Positions 6,429 to 29,785 of a stretch of 46,503 nt of DNA are shown here, piece after piece (the stretch's first letter is position 1; every line of letters starts with the position of its first letter). The DNA lies in assembly GCA_041234785.1 (NCBI GenBank), contig JBEROH010000030.1:1-46503 (forward strand), in the 5' to 3' direction. The position numbers were made by a program, and so were the translations under genes. Origin of the DNA: Candidatus Actinomarina sp. Its GTDB lineage: Bacteria > Actinomycetota > Acidimicrobiia > Actinomarinales > Actinomarinaceae. Below the pieces are notes generated by a model. The model did no database searches. It saw only the letters and a list, made by a program, of their open reading frames with translations, and had not been told where the DNA came from.

Positions 6429-7556
6429 ATGGTTCAAAGTGATTTATTGTTAAAACATCTCTCAACAGTGTACGATCCTGAACTTGGGGTCAACATTGTA
6501 GATTTAGGCATGGTAAAAAATGTGGTGCACAATAAGAACAGTGTCGATATTAAGTTAGCATTAACCATTGCGAACTGTCCAATGAGAAATCAAATTGAAC
6601 AAGAGATAAAAAGAAAGTTATTACTTATTGAAAACGTATCAACTGTCAATATTGAGGTAGTAGCTATGGATCAAAAAGATAGGTCTTCTGTTATGGAGAA
6701 AGCAAGAAAAAAAGCTAGAGACAATGCACAGCCTACAAAAATTGATCCTAAAACTAGAGTCATTGCAATAGGTAGTGGAAAAGGTGGTGTCGGCAAATCA
6801 ACCATTTCTGCAAACGTCGCTGTTGGATTATCAGACGCCGGATACAAAACTGGTTTATTAGATGCAGATATCTGGGGTTTCTCAATTCCAAGGCTTCTTG
6901 GCATATCGGGAAGAATTAAAGCCAATGATGAGAAGCTCATGATTCCATATTCTCACAATAACTTAAAAGTCATTTCTACTGGATTGATTACAGAAAATGA
7001 AGACACAGCTTTAATGTGGAGAGGTCTAATGTTAAGCAAAGCTTTAGAGCAATTCTTAACAAATGTTGAATGGGGTGATTTGGATTATTTAATAATTGAT
7101 TTACCTCCTGGAACAGGTGACATTCAAATGGCATTAAGTCGTCTTCTTCCTCAAGCTGAATTAATTGTTGTCACAACACCACAACGAATGGCCCAAAAGG
7201 TAGCAACGAGAGTTGCGGACATGGCAAAACGTAGTTTTATACCTTTATTAGGTGTTATAGAAAATATGTCTTATTTTCAATCAAAATCTGGAGAACAGTT
7301 TAATATTTTTGGATCTGGTGGTGGAGATGCTCTCGCTAATCAGTTTGGTTTATCTATACTTGGAAAAATTCCAATTAGTGAAGATACAAATGATATCGCA
7401 GATGACGGAATTCCTTTGATCTTGCAAGAAAAAGACTCTCCAACAAAACAAGCTTTAATTCAACTAACAAAGAATATTGCTGAGCAGCTACCTCCTATTA
7501 AAGATGAAACATGTACTGGTCGGTTAGCTAAGGTTTTTGAAGAGCTTTCAAAATAA
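6429..7556 (+). CDS. mrp: Mrp/ApbC/NBP35 ATPase with N-terminal DUF59 (FeS assembly) domain
   Basis: VYDPELGVNIVDLGMV..T...CP (DUF59); SGKGGVGKST, LDADIWG, WRG, DLPPGTGD and ENMS motifs. Confidence 0.93.
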   Translation: MVQSDLLLKHLSTVYDPELGVNIVDLGMVKNVVHNKNSVDIKLALTIANCPMRNQIEQEIKRKLLLIENVSTVNIEVVAMDQKDRSSVMEKARKKARDNAQPTKIDPKTRVIAIGSGKGGVGKSTISANVAVGLSDAGYKTGLLDADIWGFSIPRLLGISGRIKANDEKLMIPYSHNNLKVISTGLITENEDTALMWRGLMLSKALEQFLTNVEWGDLDYLIIDLPPGTGDIQMALSRLLPQAELIVVTTPQRMAQKVATRVADMAKRSFIPLLGVIENMSYFQSKSGEQFNIFGSGGGDALANQFGLSILGKIPISEDTNDIADDGIPLILQEKDSPTKQALIQLTKNIAEQLPPIKDETCTGRLAKVFEELSK

Positions 7557-8851
7557 TGAATTCGATTTCTGTTAACGATTTAGCTGAATCCTCCAGTCTT
7601 GAACTTCCAAGAGAGATTAAGCTTTTTCTTGCAAAAAAAGTTCTCGCAGAAACTAGAGATGGAGATGAAGCACTAAAGCAATTCAACCAGGTTGTAAACA
7701 AGTTAAGTATCGATAAACAGAAAAAAGTTATTAACGCTACCGGAACATTGCTCCACACAAACCTTGGTAGAGCCCCAAGCAACTTATTATTTCCCGGTGG
7801 ATACACAAATGTAGAATTTGATTTACTCGAATCTAAACGAGGGATGAGAAGTATTTACCTCAAGACTAGTATGAAAACTCTCTTGAATACAGAGGATGTG
7901 ACGTTTGTAAACAATAATGCCTCTTCTCTGTTTATTACTCTTGCAAGTTTAAAAAAAATTCACAATAAAAGTCACGTAATTGTCTCTCGAGGTGAAATTA
8001 TTGAAATCGGAGGTTCTTATAGACTTCCTGAAATTATTAATGAAACAGGTTTAGTCCTCATTGAAGTTGGTACCACCAATAAGACCCGTATAAAAGATTA
8101 TGAAGATGCACTAAAAAAATATGATAATGCGGTGATATTAAAGGTACATAGGTCAAATTTTTCAATTACAGGATTTACAGAAGAAACAACAATTGCTCAA
8201 CTAAAGGAATTAAAAGATTCATATCAAACAATGCTCATCCACGACTTAGGTAGTGGACTTGTAATAGACAGGGGCTTTCTAAGTAAATATGATTTACATA
8301 TTTTTGACACTGAACCAAGAGTGCAAGATTCGCTTGATTCTGGATCAGACTTGGTCTTATTTTCAGGAGATAAATTGTTTGGATCGGTTCAGTCGGGAAT
8401 CATTGCAGGAAATAAAAATATAATTGAATCAATTAATGGGTTCAGCTTGTATAGAACGTATCGCTGTTCTCCAATAATTTTATTTGAACTTCAAGAAACG
8501 ACAGATAAGTACTTATCAAAGAATGAAATAGAGATTCCATTTTGGCATCTAGTATCAACACCATACAGCTCTTTAGAAGAAAGACTATCAACGATTGTTT
8601 CAAATTGTAATGTGCAGTATGACATCGTTAGGGGCGAAAGTGTAATTGGAGGAGGGACTTTACCTGATAAAACCTTAGAATCTCCATTACTCATTTTTAA
8701 CGAAAATTCTGTAAAAGATTTAATGTTTAAATTTTTAAATAATGTGTTTCCAATAATTCCTCGCATTTTTAATGGAAAATTAAGTCTCGATATTAGAAGT
8801 GTTTCAATTGATGAGGATAAATATATAGCAGACTTCATAACATCTTTATGA
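7556..8851 (+). CDS. selA: L-seryl-tRNA(Sec) selenium transferase
   Basis: VINATG.LLHTNLGRAP, VNNNA, VSRGE.IEIGGS.R, EVGTTN.T, LKVH.SNF, DLGSG and FSGDKL.G..Q.G (PLP Lys) motifs. Confidence 0.97.
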   Translation: MNSISVNDLAESSSLELPREIKLFLAKKVLAETRDGDEALKQFNQVVNKLSIDKQKKVINATGTLLHTNLGRAPSNLLFPGGYTNVEFDLLESKRGMRSIYLKTSMKTLLNTEDVTFVNNNASSLFITLASLKKIHNKSHVIVSRGEIIEIGGSYRLPEIINETGLVLIEVGTTNKTRIKDYEDALKKYDNAVILKVHRSNFSITGFTEETTIAQLKELKDSYQTMLIHDLGSGLVIDRGFLSKYDLHIFDTEPRVQDSLDSGSDLVLFSGDKLFGSVQSGIIAGNKNIIESINGFSLYRTYRCSPIILFELQETTDKYLSKNEIEIPFWHLVSTPYSSLEERLSTIVSNCNVQYDIVRGESVIGGGTLPDKTLESPLLIFNENSVKDLMFKFLNNVFPIIPRIFNGKLSLDIRSVSIDEDKYIADFITSL

Positions 8852-10527
8852 CCGTTTTAGCTACAGCAGGACATGTAGATCACGGTAAGTCAACTTTAGT
8901 AAACTTTCTAACTGGTCAAGAGACTGATAGGTTAGATGAAGAAAAAAAACGTGGTCTCACTATCAATCTTGGATTCACATATTTTGAATATCAAAATGAA
9001 TTTGTATCAATTGTCGATGTACCTGGTCACAAAGATTACTTTAAAAACACAGTCGCAGGCTTTTCAAATGTTGATGCTGTGTTGTTCTGTATTGATGCTG
9101 TGCAAGGATGGTCTCAACAATCAGAAGAACACTTTCAAGCATTGATAAACCTTGATATTAAAAATATATTTTTTGTATTTACAAAAATCGATAAAATGGA
9201 AAACCGTAATCATATTGACAAATTAAAAACAAAAATTAGTAACTACACTACTTTCAATTTTGAAATTCTTGAATACAGTTCTATAAAAAGCGACAGGAAT
9301 GAAGTACAAATTAAAATTATTAACTATCTAAAAAATATAATAAAACCTTCATACCCACCATGTTTATGGGTTGATCGAACGTTTAATATTGATGGTGTCG
9401 GTAAAGTTGTAACCGGTACTGCAAGTAAAATTTTCAATTTAGAAAATATTTTTGTAGATTGTGACCAAACAAAATTGGACATTAGAGAAGTTCAAAATGT
9501 AAGTAATAAAATTAAGTCAATTTCCTCTTCAAGCAGATTGGCAATTTCATTTAAAAAAAATAATGAATCTCTACCCGAACGAGGTTCGCTTCTAACAAAT
9601 CAATTAAACCAACGATATAGATATGTTTTTATAGAGGAAAACGATGCAAGTGATGAAATAACTACTAAGGGCACTATAAGAATTTATATGGGGACAGGAA
9701 ATTGTATTGTTAAAAATATTCAGTATTTAAATATTGAACAAAAAAAAGTTCTACTTATTGAATTCAATAATTATCAAGTATTAATTCCAAATCAAACCAT
9801 CCTCCTACACAATCTTTCTACAAACGAATTTTATGGAGGTAAAATTATTGAAGCCTCTAACAATTACTTTCATATAAAAAAACTTGTTAATGATTCTAAA
9901 AATGAAAATTTTCTTTCAATTGATGATTTACATATATTTTATGAAAAAGAGAATCCTTTGAATATCAAACATTTTGTAGAAATTCATAACAAACTAATAC
10001 CTAAAAAGAAATTTGAAAATATATCGATTGATATTTTAAATAATCTTGAAAAAGTAAACTCTATTGGAGTTTATGAATATCTTTTTAAAGTTCATTTTGT
10101 TGAAACTGAGTTTGTTGAAGACCTTTGTAAGGCAATCGCAGATATAAAACTATCTAACAATCAAATTTTTCTAGATAAAAATAGTAAAGTGAATGAAACA
10201 TTATATTTAAAAATAAATAGCCTTCTTTCCCAAGATTTAAACGTAAACAAAGTAGATTTAAGCAACTTTAATAAAAAAGATATTAAGACATTATTTATGA
10301 ATGAATATTTGTATAGAATTGATAGCAATTTATTAATCTCTAGAGAACATAAAAATAAACTACTCCAAGTAATTGAAGAGCTACCTAATCAATTTTCAGT
10401 CAGTGATTTTAAAAACCTTACAAATCTATCACGAAAATACTCAATACCTTACTTAGAATTTTTAGACAAATTAAACATTACATCAAAAATTGATAGTGAC
10501 GGTACACGAAAAAAACTAAAAAAATAA
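8848..10527 (+). CDS. selB: Selenocysteine-specific elongation factor
   Basis: TAGHVDHGKSTL, TDRL.EEK.RG.TI.LGF, DVPGH, Q..EH, TKID; C-terminal winged helix LSRKYSIP.LEFLD; ATGA overlap with selA. Confidence 0.95.
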   Translation: MTVLATAGHVDHGKSTLVNFLTGQETDRLDEEKKRGLTINLGFTYFEYQNEFVSIVDVPGHKDYFKNTVAGFSNVDAVLFCIDAVQGWSQQSEEHFQALINLDIKNIFFVFTKIDKMENRNHIDKLKTKISNYTTFNFEILEYSSIKSDRNEVQIKIINYLKNIIKPSYPPCLWVDRTFNIDGVGKVVTGTASKIFNLENIFVDCDQTKLDIREVQNVSNKIKSISSSSRLAISFKKNNESLPERGSLLTNQLNQRYRYVFIEENDASDEITTKGTIRIYMGTGNCIVKNIQYLNIEQKKVLLIEFNNYQVLIPNQTILLHNLSTNEFYGGKIIEASNNYFHIKKLVNDSKNENFLSIDDLHIFYEKENPLNIKHFVEIHNKLIPKKKFENISIDILNNLEKVNSIGVYEYLFKVHFVETEFVEDLCKAIADIKLSNNQIFLDKNSKVNETLYLKINSLLSQDLNVNKVDLSNFNKKDIKTLFMNEYLYRIDSNLLISREHKNKLLQVIEELPNQFSVSDFKNLTNLSRKYSIPYLEFLDKLNITSKIDSDGTRKKLKK

Positions 10528-24149: not shown

Positions 24150-25370
24150 ATGGACAATTTAATTAGTACTGAATTAACTTCTCTTTCTTTTATGTTGGGG
24201 TTGCTAGTAGGAGTATATTTTATTGTTAGGGTGATTTTATTCCCTGTTGTTAAAAAAATTGCCAAAAAAACTTCTACGCTTATGGACGACCTTTTTGTAG
24301 ATAAAAAATTTTTAAATAGACTTTCTTATTTAATTGTATTTGTTTTTTTTCATATACTTTCTTCCACACCTCTCTTTGATTTAGAAGTTTTAAATTATTT
24401 AGTCGTTGAAAGAATTCTAAACTCTATATTTGCGCTCGTAGTTGGAGCAACGATTCTTGAAGTATTAACAGTGTTAAACAATGTATCTTCTCAAATTGAA
24501 TTTTTAAAGAACAAGCCTATAAAAGGTTATGTCCAAATTGTAAAAATTATTATCACCTCATTCGTTTTTATAATAATTTTTGCAATAATTACTGGCCAAC
24601 CTGTTGCATATTACATAAGTGGTCTTGGTGCTTTAACGGCTGTTTTACTTCTAATTTTTCAAGATACAATTTTGTCTTTCGTGGCATCCGTCCAAATTAC
24701 TCAAAATGACATAATCAAGGTAGGCGACTGGATTGAAGTTCGAGAGTTTGGTGCGGACGGTGATGTGATAGACATTGCCCTACATACGATCAAAGTACAA
24801 AACTGGGATAAAACTGTCACTACAATTCCAACCTCAAAAATTGTTAGTAGCTCTGTTAAAAACTGGAGAGGAATGTCAGAATATGGAGGACGTAGAATCA
24901 AACGATCAATAGCTATTGACATTTCAAGCGTAAAGTTTTTATCACAAGCTGAAATTTTAGAATTAGAAAAACTAGCTCCTCTTAAAAATTACATTGCCCA
25001 AAAAAAGATTGAACTTGAGGAATATAACAAATCAATAGAGCAATCAGCTCATATCTTCGAATTCAGAAAGTTAACAAACATTGGTACTTACAGAGCTTAT
25101 ATTGAAAATTATTTAAAACAGAATGAAAATCTAAACACCGAAACTATGACTTGTTTAGTAAGACAACTCTCATCAACTCCTGAAGGAGTACCAATTGAAA
25201 TTTATACCTTTACAAATACAACTGAGTGGGTCGCTTATGAGAAAATACAGTCAGATATTTTTGACCACTTATTTGCAATCCTTCCAAAATTTGGATTAAG
25301 AGTTTTTCAAAATGGATTGTTAGAAGCTGTGGCTATGAAAAATCTTCCTTTTAATCAATTTGATGAGTAA
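24150..25370 (+). CDS. Mechanosensitive channel, MscS family (YbdG/MscM-like)
   Basis: GLGA.TAVLLL.FQDTIL..VAS.Q, GDWIE...GADG.V.DI.L.T.KVQNWDKT and NWRGM...GGRRIKRS motifs. Confidence 0.93.
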   Translation: MDNLISTELTSLSFMLGLLVGVYFIVRVILFPVVKKIAKKTSTLMDDLFVDKKFLNRLSYLIVFVFFHILSSTPLFDLEVLNYLVVERILNSIFALVVGATILEVLTVLNNVSSQIEFLKNKPIKGYVQIVKIIITSFVFIIIFAIITGQPVAYYISGLGALTAVLLLIFQDTILSFVASVQITQNDIIKVGDWIEVREFGADGDVIDIALHTIKVQNWDKTVTTIPTSKIVSSSVKNWRGMSEYGGRRIKRSIAIDISSVKFLSQAEILELEKLAPLKNYIAQKKIELEEYNKSIEQSAHIFEFRKLTNIGTYRAYIENYLKQNENLNTETMTCLVRQLSSTPEGVPIEIYTFTNTTEWVAYEKIQSDIFDHLFAILPKFGLRVFQNGLLEAVAMKNLPFNQFDE

Positions 25371-26841
25371 AAAATTTTTTAAAAAATATTAACATCAATG
25401 CAATTAATAAACTCATATAGTTGAAATAGTTTCCATACCTACTGTAAAAAGTTACTGAATCGACAGGATAAATAGTTTCTGTTAAAAGAGATGTGGTGAA
25501 CAAGTCTGTTTTTGATATTACGTTTCCTAAATTATTAATGAATGCAGACTTTCCTGTTATAGCAGCATGAACAATTGGTCTATTATTTGATATTGCGTTA
25601 GCTTGCGACATTAATATAAACTGATCAGACATACCACTCTCTCCATAGCTCGCTTGGTTGGTAAGAATAATAATTACTTCAGCACCTTGATTGACACTTT
25701 TTCTAATGTATCTTTGAAAAGAGCCTTCAAAAGAAATGACTGAAGCAATCCTGACCTCATCAAGATACAAAATTTTCTCTCTGTCTCCCCTAATCATGTC
25801 TCTAGGCACTTGTGCCAAAGGAGGAATCCAATCTAAATATTTTCTGAATGGAATATACTCACCAAATGGTACTGGGTGTTGTTTAAGATATTGATCAATG
25901 ACAAGACCTTGCGTATTGATAAATACACCATAATTTTCGAAATTTTCATTGCCTATTGGCCTATCCCCTCCAATCAGAAAATATGAATCGAGTCGTTTTG
26001 CTTCAGTTTGAATTTCACCTAAAACTTCTTTGTGAACTAACGGATCATTATTAAAGCCAGTAGAACTTTCTGGCCAAACAACTAAGTTAACATTTTGATT
26101 AATTTCTTTTGTTAGGTTTAAGTGACTTTCATAAATTCTTTGTCTCTCGTTGGAACATTTATTTTTTGTTCCAGGACAAGGACTGTTGCCTTGAACAATT
26201 GAAATTGTCAAACCCTCTTTTGTAGCATTACTCTTTTCAAAATTAAATAAGTCAACAGTGGAAATTAATAATGGAATTGAGATCAAAAAAACATAGCCTG
26301 TAAAACTTTTTAAAATTCTACCCTTTTTAGATTCTGAAATGAACAACACAAGAAATAAAACAAAGCTTTGAATTATTAATGATAACCCTGACGGCCCATA
26401 AGTTTTAAACAAATTCGGTAATAAGTATGTGCTATATTCTGAATAACTTGTTAACAGCACAGTTGAACTAAATCCCCAAGGAAAACCTCCGAAAGGAAAA
26501 TATGCTCGCATTAAATCAAAAGAACTTATCACACCTATTAGTACAAAAAAATGATTCTGAAATTTATTTTTGAAAAAAACGAAAATAACTCCAAAAACAC
26601 CGTAGGTTAAACCCATTAGGATTGTTAACGGTATCCAAGCCTCATATCCAATTGACTTAATACCAAGCAAAATCACACTATAAGCAATGCTTCCAAAAAT
26701 AAATCCAGAACTAAAGCCATTTTTACTTAAAAGTAATGCTCGGTAAAAAAAATACAATGCTGGAAAGATTAGATACCATAAATTAAATGGAGGGAAGCTT
26801 AAAAAGTAAAGAGCCCCTGCTAAAACAGCACTTATTTTCAT
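25351..26841 (-). CDS. lnt: Apolipoprotein N-acyltransferase (catalytic Cys replaced by Ser)
   Basis: LSFPP, PFGGFPWG, VQGN, VVWPES, Y.K.HPVPFGEYIP, ISFE (normally ICYE/ICFE), and TG.SA motifs. Confidence 0.92.
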   Translation of the reverse strand: MKISAVLAGALYFLSFPPFNLWYLIFPALYFFYRALLLSKNGFSSGFIFGSIAYSVILLGIKSIGYEAWIPLTILMGLTYGVFGVIFVFFKNKFQNHFFVLIGVISSFDLMRAYFPFGGFPWGFSSTVLLTSYSEYSTYLLPNLFKTYGPSGLSLIIQSFVLFLVLFISESKKGRILKSFTGYVFLISIPLLISTVDLFNFEKSNATKEGLTISIVQGNSPCPGTKNKCSNERQRIYESHLNLTKEINQNVNLVVWPESSTGFNNDPLVHKEVLGEIQTEAKRLDSYFLIGGDRPIGNENFENYGVFINTQGLVIDQYLKQHPVPFGEYIPFRKYLDWIPPLAQVPRDMIRGDREKILYLDEVRIASVISFEGSFQRYIRKSVNQGAEVIIILTNQASYGESGMSDQFILMSQANAISNNRPIVHAAITGKSAFINNLGNVISKTDLFTTSLLTETIYPVDSVTFYSRYGNYFNYMSLLIALMLIFFKKFFTHQID

Positions 26842-26877: not shown

Positions 26878-27612
26878 TTAATTTATATTTCTTAGAATTA
26901 CGATAATTCCTGAAAAAATTGAAAAATAAGTTACAGCATTCGCAATAAAATTGTCTGAAAATCTTGAAAAAATTTTACTCGAAGTAGCAAAACCAAATAA
27001 GACAAAAGGTACAAAAACTATAAATAATCTTAGATGATCAAATGTCAGGTTATTGTTAAGAACTAGTAGTACTAAAGTTATTATTATTCCGATACTAAAA
27101 ACACTATTTAATGATGGTCGGAACTCGTCTGATTTTGTCTTTCTATAAAGAAGTGCAACAGGTGGTCCTCCAACAGCAGCTACCATTCCAAATATTCCAG
27201 AAAATGTTCCAGCTAGAAAAGAATTAATAGTCGTTTTGTTTATAACCCAACCAAAAAAAGAAGCTAGCCCGCCTATTAGTACGATGATTCCAACTAGTAA
27301 GGATAGGTATTTTTGGCTTAAGTTTATTAGTAAAAATAGACCAATTGGTCCACCAATTAATCGACCAACTAAAAGAGGTTTAACTTTAGAAAGATTTACT
27401 TTGTCTCTTTCTCTATAAAAAACTTTAAGAGCTAAGGGTAAAGCTAATAGAGATAGAAGTTGGGGAACAAGATTTGGATTTAATTGTACAACAATAGGTG
27501 AAGCGATAACTGCAAAACCAAAGCCAAGCACTCCTTGTACAGCAGAGCTAATAAAAAATAAAAATGCTAGAAATAGAAGTTCATTAATTGATAAATCAAA
27601 AGGTATTGTCAA
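26878..27612 (-). CDS. Sulfite exporter TauE/SafE family membrane protein
   Basis: S.VQG..GFG.A....P and G..SG..G.....GGPP repeats; about 8 TM segments; TTG start overlaps the upstream TGA (TTGA). Confidence 0.9.
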   Translation of the reverse strand: MTIPFDLSINELLFLAFLFFISSAVQGVLGFGFAVIASPIVVQLNPNLVPQLLSLLALPLALKVFYRERDKVNLSKVKPLLVGRLIGGPIGLFLLINLSQKYLSLLVGIIVLIGGLASFFGWVINKTTINSFLAGTFSGIFGMVAAVGGPPVALLYRKTKSDEFRPSLNSVFSIGIIITLVLLVLNNNLTFDHLRLFIVFVPFVLFGFATSSKIFSRFSDNFIANAVTYFSIFSGIIVILRNIN

Positions 27613-27845
27613 CTAAGAGCTTTATCTAATAAACTTAGAATTTCCCCATCTTCAGCATGTCTACCATTTGCAGTTTTGGAATATAGCAATGTGTTATTCA
27701 AATACAATTCAAAAACTCCACCTGAACCAGGAATCAAATTAATAGAACTAACAGCCTTGCCATACTTTTCTAGAATGTCTTCAACCGTACTAACTGCACG
27801 GGGTGTGTAGTTTCAAACTACACAAAATTCGAGTTTGATATCCAT
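27609..27845 (-). CDS. Rdx (SelT/SelW/SelH) family selenoprotein, 78 aa, Sec at codon 11 (TGA 27815-27813)
   Basis: Not in ORF track. Reads MDIKLEFCVVUNYTPRAVSTVEDILEKYGKAVSSINLIPGSGGVFELYLNNTLLYSKTANGRHAEDGEILSLLDKALS*: CxxU, LIPGSGGVFE and LYSK..GR are Rdx hallmarks; downstream SECIS-like hairpin; selA and selB are in the window. Confidence 0.93.
27785..27801 (-). promoter_or_regulatory. Bacterial SECIS element
   Basis: CCGUGC-AGUUA-GUACGG: 17-nt hairpin (6-bp stem, GU-containing loop) starting after an 11-nt spacer from the UGA, the geometry of the E. coli fdhF minimal SECIS. Confidence 0.8.
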
Positions 27846-27886
27846 AATAGAAATACTATCATTAAAAAAATTAAAGGAGATTCAAA

Positions 27887-29785
27887 TTGTACGATTATTC
27901 AAATGTAAGTAAAGACAGTCTTGAGCTAGAGCTAAATACATCAATTGATAAATGTAAAAACTTAATTGAAGAGATAAAACAAAAAGAAGTAATTGTTTTA
28001 GAAAATTTTGATGAATTTGAAAGGCAAGTTGCTGAAGTGACTGGTAAAGTAGCATTTTTGTCTAATGTTCATCCACAAAAAGAAATTAGAGATTTTGGAA
28101 ATGAGGCTGAATCAATTCTTGAAAACTATATCCTTGATACCATTACCGATGAAAAATTATTTGAACAATTCAAAAAAATAGACACTACCAAGTTCAATCA
28201 TGAATCTCTAAAATATTTCAAAAGTTTAGAACGAGACTTTTTAGATGCTGGTCATAATCTTGATAAACCTTCTAAAGGTCGACTTATTGAAATTGAAAAA
28301 AAATTAATTGAACTTGAAATTTCATTTTCAAAAAACATTGCTGATGATAAATCTAAAGTTCTTCTTTCTCTAGAACAGCTTGACGGTTTAAGTGTAGAAG
28401 AAATTAGCAATTTCAATAAAAGTGAGGAAAAATATGTGATTACAATGGCATACCCTGATATAAATGCTGTTCTAGAAAATTGCATAAACAGAAGCACGCG
28501 AGAAGTTGTATGGAAAACTTTTAACAATAGAGCGGTAAATACAAACTCTTCAATTCTTAAGGAAGCTGTTGTACTTAGAAATGAAAAAGCAAATTTATTT
28601 GGTTTTGCTACTTGGGCAGAATACCGACTACAACATAGAATGGCAAAAAATCCTAAAAATGTAAATCAAATGTATAGTAATTTAATACCTAAACTTCAAC
28701 AATCTGCGCAAAACGAAAAAGAAGAGTTGGCATCTGATGGAATTGAGGCAAGTAGTATTGCCCCATGGGATATTAGATATTTCATTACAAAAAAAAGAAA
28801 TGAAGTTAGCACAGTTGACAATAGTGAAATTAAAAAATATTTCTTCATTCATGATGTAAAAAAAGAAATGTTTTCAATATGTGAAGAGGTCTTCAGTATT
28901 GAAATAAAACAAGAAAATTCAGATACAGCTTGGCATGAAGATGTCGAACTGTGGTCCATCTGGGATCAAGGTGAAGAGCTTCTTGGATACTTTTATTTAG
29001 ATCTTCACCCTAGAGATGGTAAATATACCCATGCCGCAGTTATGGATGTTTCACCGGGAAACGAACAAAAAGCACAGCTTCCAATTTGTTCAATGGTTGC
29101 CAATTTTCCAAATCCAAAAATAGGAGATGGGCTCATGACTTTTGATGAGGTAGAAACTTTATTTCACGAATTTGGCCATGTGTTACACATGGCAATAGGA
29201 AAATCAAAATTCTCTAGATTTATAGGTGCAAGTGTCGAGTGGGATTTTGTTGAAGCACCTAGCCAAATAATGGAGCATTGGGTTTGGAAAAGCCAATGTA
29301 TGAAAAGAATCTCAAAACATATTGAAACAGGCGAGTCTCTTGAAGATAGTATTTGTAAAAAATTAAATGATTCCAAAAATATTGGTATTAGCTTGCTTAC
29401 TTTAAGACAAGTTTCATTTGGGTTAGCCGACCAACACTTACATGGAGAAAACTTTAATGATTCACTATTAGATATTGAAAAATCAGCACAATCCGTAACT
29501 ACCATAGATTACCCAACAGACATAAACCATTTAGCATCATTTGGTCACCTTCTTGGAGGCTATGATGCAGCATATTATGGATATCTTTGGGCTGATATTA
29601 TTGGAGATGATTTGTTTAGTAGATTTGAAAATGAGGGAGTTCTCTCTAATACAGTGGGTGTAGACTATAAAAATAAAATTTTAAGCCCAGGTGGCACTAA
29701 ATCTGCTGAAGAGCTAGTTGAAAATTTTCTTGGTAGAAAATGGAATGATCAAGCATTTTTATTACAAAAAAACTTGCTAAATTAG
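27887..29785 (+). CDS. M3 family metallopeptidase (thimet oligopeptidase/oligopeptidase A-like)
   Basis: YLDL.PR.GKY.HA, ETLFHEFGH..H, WDFVEAPSQ..E.W and GYDAAYYGYLW motifs; AAGGAG before a TTG start. Confidence 0.95.
   Translation: MYDYSNVSKDSLELELNTSIDKCKNLIEEIKQKEVIVLENFDEFERQVAEVTGKVAFLSNVHPQKEIRDFGNEAESILENYILDTITDEKLFEQFKKIDTTKFNHESLKYFKSLERDFLDAGHNLDKPSKGRLIEIEKKLIELEISFSKNIADDKSKVLLSLEQLDGLSVEEISNFNKSEEKYVITMAYPDINAVLENCINRSTREVVWKTFNNRAVNTNSSILKEAVVLRNEKANLFGFATWAEYRLQHRMAKNPKNVNQMYSNLIPKLQQSAQNEKEELASDGIEASSIAPWDIRYFITKKRNEVSTVDNSEIKKYFFIHDVKKEMFSICEEVFSIEIKQENSDTAWHEDVELWSIWDQGEELLGYFYLDLHPRDGKYTHAAVMDVSPGNEQKAQLPICSMVANFPNPKIGDGLMTFDEVETLFHEFGHVLHMAIGKSKFSRFIGASVEWDFVEAPSQIMEHWVWKSQCMKRISKHIETGESLEDSICKKLNDSKNIGISLLTLRQVSFGLADQHLHGENFNDSLLDIEKSAQSVTTIDYPTDINHLASFGHLLGGYDAAYYGYLWADIIGDDLFSRFENEGVLSNTVGVDYKNKILSPGGTKSAEELVENFLGRKWNDQAFLLQKNLLN

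Follow-up and report, generated by a model that had tools for sequence, protein, structure and literature searches.

What, if anything, is encoded in the 274 bp that translation table 11 leaves empty between two open reading frames (ORFs) of Candidatus Actinomarina sp., one at 26878..27612 on the minus strand and the other at 27887..29785 on the plus strand? The DNA concerned is a stretch of 46,503 nucleotides (contig JBEROH010000030.1, positions 1 to 46,503, of assembly GCA_041234785.1), referred to in the following as the window. A first-pass annotation, made from the sequence alone, had placed a 78-residue selenoprotein of the Rdx/SelW type in this apparent gap, with an in-frame UGA read as selenocysteine (Sec, U) and a hairpin downstream of it acting as selenocysteine insertion sequence (SECIS); the strand, which is the minus strand, was left unstated. 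The table-11 ORFs and a translation with TGA read as U bear out the frame: a minus-strand ORF fills the gap and yields, over 27845..27609, the 78 residues M-D-I-K-L-E-F-C-V-V-U-N-Y-T-P-R-A-V..., followed by a terminal TGA, and the claimed Cys-Val-Val-UGA stands at codons 8-11. With a probability that we put at roughly 0.92, this ORF is a functional gene encoding a 78-residue SelW/Rdx protein with the motif Cys8-x-x-Sec11, in which Sec would be inserted at the UGA.

A SelW-like protein with an invariant redox motif

The profile search that had been proposed as a check of the family assignment supports it: PF10262 (Rdx) matches the ORF with 62.6 bits (cut-off 22.6) over profile positions 2-73 of 74, and the NCBIfam model TIGR02174 (SelT/SelW/SelH) does so with 49.3 bits against a cut-off of 34.2. 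The Pfam match spans residues 3-74, in agreement with the claim that family motifs flank the UGA. The best-scoring NCBIfam model is NF041051 (SelTWH_Campy), with 76 bits over residues 3-73. A sequence search of the Protein Data Bank (PDB) returned six solved bacterial SelW-related proteins and human MIEN1; 2fa8 was found at E = 6.4e-8, and the CTQC motifs of 2fa8 and 2ojl align with C-V-V-U, which places the UGA opposite the second cysteine of a CxxC motif.

The AlphaFold2 (AF2) model, computed with 76 sequences, has a mean predicted local distance difference test (pLDDT) score of 96.8 and a predicted template modelling (pTM) score of 0.85. Its secondary structure elements follow the order strand-helix-strand-strand-strand-helix, with C8-V-V-U11 located between the strand at residues 2-8 and the helix at residues 14-31; C8 and position 11 are invariant among the 76 aligned sequences. 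The best Foldseek match to the model is 2fa8, with a template modelling (TM) score of 0.91 and a root-mean-square deviation (rmsd) of 1.2 A. Bacterial SelW-related structures lead the ranking as a group (TM 0.84-0.91, rmsd 1.2-1.4 A), and mouse SelW (2npb, TM 0.70) and thioredoxins (TM about 0.55-0.6) follow at lower ranks. Sequence and model together indicate that the product is a small thioredoxin-fold protein of the SelW/Rdx family; its most likely role is that of a small selenol/thiol oxidoreductase.

The UGA is a constant feature of the gene in the genus. Codon 11 is TGA in all 51 genus loci compared (24 from a genome search and 27 named records, with some genomes counted twice and 34 distinct sequences), and the same holds for codon 79. 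Each of the 24 matches from the genome search, which stem from 22 of the 24 other genomes and, in two cases, from the window's own assembly, carries exactly one TGA, and with an amino-acid identity of 62-82% across the genus there are no further stops or frameshifts. At the level of the class, TIGR02174 matched 107 of 251 Acidimicrobiia genomes, including 53 of the 59 genomes of the genus, and 106 of the 109 class matches contain one TGA. The three matches that lack a TGA (loci L046, L113 and L114) have cysteine at the Sec site, and cysteine is likewise what the solved CxxC structures align there; the interchange of Cys and UGA among homologues that the first-pass annotation anticipated is thus observed. 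Comparison of the orthologues further shows that the protein is conserved on either side of the UGA, which excludes a shorter gene starting after this codon.

One of the Cys forms, L114 (G194:C6:566592-566962), contains a 5-bp hairpin remnant at the place where the Sec forms have the hairpin described below, without the G-U of the loop; judging from its sequence, this remnant would be in keeping with a recent replacement of Sec by Cys. A Sec form is encoded in that genome as well. A second copy of the locus (Lnt, TauE, SelW-like, M3 peptidase) is present on a short contig in the assembly of the window (contig C11:7571-7804, L047). Its protein has 69% identity to that of the window copy, and over 85 compared bases it is identical to the locus of G017 (L032), the genome of a different species. 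The contig was most likely co-binned from a second Actinomarina species, and the copy would then be no paralogue.

A covarying hairpin downstream of the UGA

The 17-nt hairpin that the first-pass annotation had described after a spacer of 11 nt is found in the RNA of the minus strand (Table 1). Its minimum free energy (MFE) is -7.2 kcal/mol for the 17 nt alone and -8.2 kcal/mol in a context of 36 nt; taken alone, it reaches z = -3.45, and 2 of 200 shuffled sequences are equally stable. The real support for the hairpin is comparative and consists of covariation and of frozen synonymous sites in the aligned sequences.

Within the genus (16 distinct sequences), pairing is standard in 100% of the cells of the six pairs. 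One of these pairs is U-A in 8 sequences, C-G in 7 and G-C in 1, and two others alternate between G-U and G-C. In the covarying pair, position 3 of a Pro codon is matched with position 1 of a Val/Ile/Leu codon, and an amino-acid change is therefore tied to a silent change. The class set comprises the genus and 43 of the 51 matches of the Sec form outside it, the eight weakest rows not having been fetched; it excludes the three Cys forms, duplicates and one sequence containing N, and ranges from 32% GC to high GC. In these 65 distinct sequences, 96.9% of the cells are paired. Changes on both sides occur in four of the six pairs, in 32 cells compared with a shuffle mean of 8.5, a value that is reached by none of 500 shuffles, and pairing falls to 14-51% when the partner is slid by 1-3 columns. 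All class sequences have G as the second and U as the third base of the loop. The synonymous sites point in the same direction: R16, A17, V18 and T20 are each encoded by one and the same codon in 36-37 of the 37 distinct genus genes, whereas other four- to sixfold degenerate sites vary freely, and the mean synonymous entropy in the genus is 0.41 for codons 8-21 as opposed to 0.96 elsewhere.

The dimensions of the hairpin also agree with a published model of the bacterial SECIS (bSECIS; PMC13188914), which, in the portion of the source drawn on here, specifies a loop of 3-9 nt with a G in the first two loop positions, a stem of 4-16 bp, a distance of 16-37 nt from the UGA to the loop and an MFE of at most -7.5. 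The corresponding values are a loop of 5 nt in which G2 is followed by U3, a stem of 6 bp, 17 nt between UGA and loop, and -8.2 kcal/mol.

As a general detector of SECIS elements in this lineage, the hairpin was tried and rejected: across the whole genome, a covariance model of the UGA and the hairpin scored only the two SelW-like copies (64.1 and 60.6 bits), and the next-best hit had an E-value of 0.07. The idea that the hairpin supplies a SECIS model for the lineage has to be narrowed in consequence. Going by the sequences compared, it is a good model for the SelW-like family across the Acidimicrobiia; it does not extend to all of the organism's selenoprotein genes.

Selenocysteine machinery and a possible course of insertion

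Apart from the codon and the hairpin, Sec insertion depends on dedicated machinery, and the genome encodes tRNA-Sec, SelA, SelB and SelD. The tRNA-Sec, with anticodon TCA, lies elsewhere in the genome and was detected with 70.8 bits; selA and a divergent selB are located in the window itself (Table 1). The selD gene resides on another contig (C14:17316-18239, L017) and has an in-frame TGA of its own, in the sequence M-R-L-T-E-Y-S-H-G-S-G-U-A-C-K... The first-pass annotation had named three observations that would count decisively against a selenoprotein: Trp or another non-Cys residue at this position in orthologues, a hairpin that is not conserved, and a genome lacking tRNA-Sec. What was found is TGA, or else a Cys codon, in the DNA of the orthologues, a hairpin that is both conserved and covarying, and a tRNA-Sec with anticodon TCA.

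These components could act together in the following manner. The 5' end of the mRNA probably coincides with the ATG or precedes it closely. Once a ribosome has arrived at UGA11, the 6-bp hairpin with the conserved G-U in its 5-nt loop would be positioned 11 nt downstream, at the mRNA entrance, and may recruit the complex of SelB, GTP and Sec-tRNA(Sec), as in the established bacterial mechanism, leading to insertion of Sec and not to termination. The second UGA, codon 79, is not followed by such a hairpin and would act as the stop. This stop overlaps the TTG start of the adjacent TauE/SafE-family gene, and the two genes are probably co-transcribed and translationally coupled.

Transcription, neighbouring genes and a possible selenium gate

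The extended -10 element that had been claimed 7 nt before the ATG is present, as TGATAGTAT (27861..27853 on the minus strand). Either TGATAGTAT or TGATACTAT occurs at that place in most genus sequences, and one subgroup has a shifted TATAGT. A scan for consensus promoters did not list the proposed -10, because the element has no -35 partner, and no terminator was found either. The position of the element suggests an mRNA that is leaderless or nearly leaderless. Only three RNA runs contained small shares of the window, in the form of contigs that define no transcript ends, strand or level, and a lack of coverage elsewhere carries no meaning. One RNA-library contig (depth 75, 1 mismatch in 296 nt) covers 27531-27826 and thereby the UGA, the hairpin and everything downstream of them in the ORF, as well as 82 nt of tauE. 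A 52-nt RNA-library piece extends to 23 nt upstream of the ATG; with four mismatches it probably originates from a relative, and it is neutral with respect to a leaderless start.

In all 51 genus loci, the last base of codon 78 is T and TGA follows as codon 79, and the TauE match begins at that very T. The downstream gene belongs to the TauE/SafE family, designated K07090, and the order SelW-like, TauE, Lnt is kept in all 51 genus loci. On the other side of the selenoprotein gene, the divergent neighbour (27887-29785, plus strand) is an M3-family oligopeptidase gene with a TTG start preceded by AAAGGAG; a Shine-Dalgarno-led gene and an apparently leaderless one thus lie back to back in the 274-bp region.

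This arrangement invites a regulatory reading, which is compatible with a working gene and which we consider unlikely. The gene, although real, would mainly serve as a selenium gate: due to the UGA and the hairpin, only ribosomes that have inserted Sec would reach the TTGA and re-initiate on tauE, and the TauE membrane protein would be made in step with the selenium supply. In the genus the TTGA overlap is indeed universal (51 of 51 loci), the TTG is the sole canonical start before the TauE Pfam domain and is not preceded by a Shine-Dalgarno-like run, in contrast to the AAAGGAG of the divergent peptidase gene, and the RNA-library contig bridges the junction of the selenoprotein gene and tauE. 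Overlapping stop/start pairs are, however, common in streamlined genomes and need not regulate anything, the link to TauE is missing in five other Acidimicrobiia loci, and a protein that is so strongly conserved and well folded is not a mere leader peptide.

A second hairpin, in which the UGA itself forms the loop, could be part of such a gate (Table 1). It is a perfect 9-bp hairpin spanning the codons C-V-V-U-N-Y-T. In the 16 distinct genus sequences, 91.7% of its cells are paired, with one pair changed from GC to AU in two of them; in the other Acidimicrobiia sequences of the class set, inspected by eye, it is not kept. That this genus-specific hairpin tunes a selenium gate on the coupled TauE/SafE gene appears, from the sequences, slightly more doubtful still than the gate as such. 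Were it true, selenium supply would determine how much of an anion exporter is produced by one of the most abundant ocean bacteria.

Table 1. Coordinates of the predicted selenoprotein gene, its RNA elements and associated genes in the window
Feature	Position	Strand	Description and basis
SelW-like/Rdx selenoprotein CDS (predicted)	27612..27845	-	78 codons, ATG 27845..27843; stop TGA 27611..27609 outside this range
In-frame UGA, codon 11, predicted to be read as Sec (C8-V-V-U11)	27813..27815	-	Translation, conservation, alignment with 2fa8
Bacterial SECIS-type hairpin (predicted)	27785..27801	-	CCGUGC-AGUUA-GUACGG; 6-bp stem, 5-nt loop, 11 nt past UGA
9-bp hairpin with UGA as 3-nt loop (predicted)	27804..27824	-	MFE -8.7 kcal/mol, z -3.54, 0/200 shuffles
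Extended -10-like element TGATAGTAT	27853..27861	-	7 nt before ATG, no Shine-Dalgarno sequence between
TTGA overlap of selenoprotein stop and TTG start of next gene	27609..27612	-	ORF map
TauE/SafE-family membrane protein	26878..27612	-	PF01925 69.6 bits, positions 2-235 of 237; 244 aa, no in-frame TGA
Apolipoprotein N-acyltransferase (Lnt), third gene	25351..26841	-	Pfam CN_hydrolase and LNT_N
selA (selenocysteine synthase)	7556..8851	+	TIGR00474 355.9 bits, above cut-off; Pfam SelA; 19 kb away
selB (Sec-specific elongation factor), divergent	8848..10527	+	TIGR00475 201.9 bits; Pfam GTP_EFTU and SelB-wing_3

Public protein calls and the genetic code

A search of protein databases retrieved 101 relatives, all of at least 43 residues, although the table-11 frame ends after 10 codons. 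Eleven of the 101 were inspected: nine are full-length calls of 74-92 residues and a tenth has 67 residues with an internal gap. Ten of the 11 have W at the Sec position, the eleventh being devoid of the native N-terminus and the Sec site. In nine of these ten, the terminal TGA is likewise rendered as W, and a tail of 5-13 residues follows that varies from one orthologue to another; the call of 74 residues ends earlier. Two cluster representatives bear the JGI name 'selenoprotein W-related protein'.

Taken at face value, these calls would mean that TGA encodes Trp (genetic code 4) and that the product has 84-92 residues, those at positions 11 and 79 being Trp, as in the database homologues of that length. 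We regard this as highly improbable. TGA is otherwise a stop codon in Actinomarina: under table 11, 39 long frames span 94% of the window without an in-frame TGA, and five of the 39 end in TGA. The tails beyond the second TGA lack conservation among orthologues, this TGA overlaps the start of a conserved gene, a tRNA-Sec with anticodon TCA is present together with selA, selB and selD, and homologues with a sense codon at the Sec site have Cys and not Trp. To judge from their sequences, the Trp-bearing calls are the outcome of code-4 gene calling on short metagenome contigs; as an artefact, the Trp in these database proteins is no evidence for Trp in orthologues. Nor is it credible that the gene is dead, i.e., a remnant decaying in an intergenic gap after a Cys codon mutated to a stop, for although the standard code does break the frame after 10 codons, the TGA is kept throughout the genus (51/51 loci) and nearly throughout the class (106/109 matches), no other stops or frameshifts have accumulated at 62-82% amino-acid identity, the hairpin covaries amid frozen synonymous sites, and the AF2 model is of high confidence.

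Weighing the evidence

Several observations weigh against the reading of this ORF as a working selenoprotein gene or restrict it. Concerning the hairpin, its surroundings are unexceptional in stability, both in the 36-nt context (z -1.22, 19 of 200 shuffles) and in a 90-nt context (z -0.89, 40 of 200 shuffles), and an Rfam scan of 27400-28000 revealed no SECIS family up to E = 10, the sole hit being a small nucleolar RNA (snoRNA) match by chance at E 3.1. The latter failure is expected, because Rfam SECIS models found nothing either in the study 'Actinomarina, resolved' (Nielsen and Lui, bioRxiv 10.64898/2026.04.03.716425), the available text of which states that Rfam covers bacterial SECIS elements poorly. 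The UGA of selD lacks a matching hairpin; a longer predicted stem starts there at the UGA itself. In view of this dissimilarity, one SelB would need to accept both the selD and the SelW-like hairpins. SelB, in turn, scores below the TIGR00475 cut-off (201.9 vs 242.25 bits), yet it covers profile positions 2-572 of 581.

As regards the gene and its distribution, the 76 bits obtained with NF041051 remain below the 88-bit cut-off for membership in that equivalog. In the set of 59 genomes, one of the genus genome sets searched, six genomes gave no match (66-87% complete), and some Actinomarina species may lack the gene. The five loci of other Acidimicrobiia have unrelated neighbours and no TauE; owing to these differences outside the genus, gene context is uninformative on function. 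The RNA-library contig fits co-transcription of the selenoprotein gene and tauE, with DNA carry-over being possible and transcript ends absent from it.

Relation to the Actinomarina selenoproteome and significance

In the accessible part of its text, the preprint of Nielsen and Lui, the one paper that a literature search on selenocysteine in Actinomarina returned, reports selC, selA, selD and a divergent selB in 84 of 84 complete Actinomarina genomes, about five predicted selenoproteins per genome and a selD of the Sec type (bioRxiv 10.64898/2026.04.03.716425). The commonest family there comprises proteins of 78 residues with one Sec, in 59 of 113 genomes plus 35 with a variant; it gave no hit in databases and is labelled uncharacterised. 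The available text of the preprint nowhere uses the terms SelW, Rdx or thioredoxin, and its main text does not contain the N-terminal letters of the present ORF. The 78-residue family and the ORF described here have in common the genus, the length, the single Sec and, as far as that text goes, the rank of most widespread selenoprotein; judged solely by length and ubiquity, the two are very probably the same gene. According to the same part of the preprint, candidates are assigned by same-strand overlap, a procedure that could put the ORF on the TauE gene, which it overlaps by 4 nt; the K07090 group of the preprint may be such a case.

SelW-like CxxU proteins and SECIS elements inside bacterial genes are textbook knowledge, and no principle is changed by the present case. 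New are the family name, the covarying hairpin across the class and the conserved TTGA overlap with the TauE/SafE gene. Actinomarina is highly abundant in the ocean and has a genome of roughly 1 Mb; the analysis probably gives a name to its most widespread selenoprotein, listed so far as 'uncharacterized', and the same Sec form is shown across much of the class Acidimicrobiia. The public calls are a cautionary case for databases: among the 11 inspected, the full-length ones have Trp in place of Sec and, with the exception of the 74-residue call, an artificial tail, apparently owing to gene calling under code 4. The covarying hairpin, in turn, is a possible test object for SelB recognition in Actinomycetota.

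Comparison with known systems

The minimal SECIS of the type found in Escherichia coli fdhF consists of a 17-nt upper stem-loop located 11 nt from the UGA, with a bulged U in the stem. The Actinomarina hairpin resembles this element and the bSECIS model in its 11-nt spacer, its 17-nt stem-loop and an early loop G followed by U. Its stem, in contrast, has no bulged base and is unrelated in sequence to the E. coli element; it is built from the family-conserved codons for P-R-A-V-S-T-V.

At the protein level, the closest solved relatives are 2fa8 (Agrobacterium Atu0228), 2ojl, 2obk, 2oka, 2p0g and 3dex, which share the fold and the place of the redox motif with the Actinomarina protein. These CxxC proteins have Cys where the latter has Sec, and they are more remote than the common fold may suggest: sequence identity amounts to 17-24%, and their length is 103-108 residues as compared to 78. 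A stretch S-K-x-x-x-G-R-H-A-E is conserved in the Actinomarina-type clade, whereas 2fa8 and 2ojl have other residues there. NF041051 describes the Campylobacter SelT/SelW/SelH (seleno)protein equivalog, and the Actinomarina ORF, from a member of the Actinomycetota, stands outside it.

SelW-like CxxU proteins are, in the part of the paper of Zhang and Gladyshev that was available (PLoS Genet 2008, PMC2398784), the commonest selenoproteins in marine metagenomes. Like the Actinomarina gene, the marine genes described there encode small Rdx-family proteins with a CxxU motif and contain a SECIS within the gene, and the dominance of the Sec form among the class matches (106 of 109) agrees with that survey (PMC2398784). 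Whereas the sequences in that portion of the survey are unassigned reads, the gene analysed here is placed in genomes of Actinomarina and other Acidimicrobiia, together with its hairpin, its operon partners and the machinery for Sec insertion.

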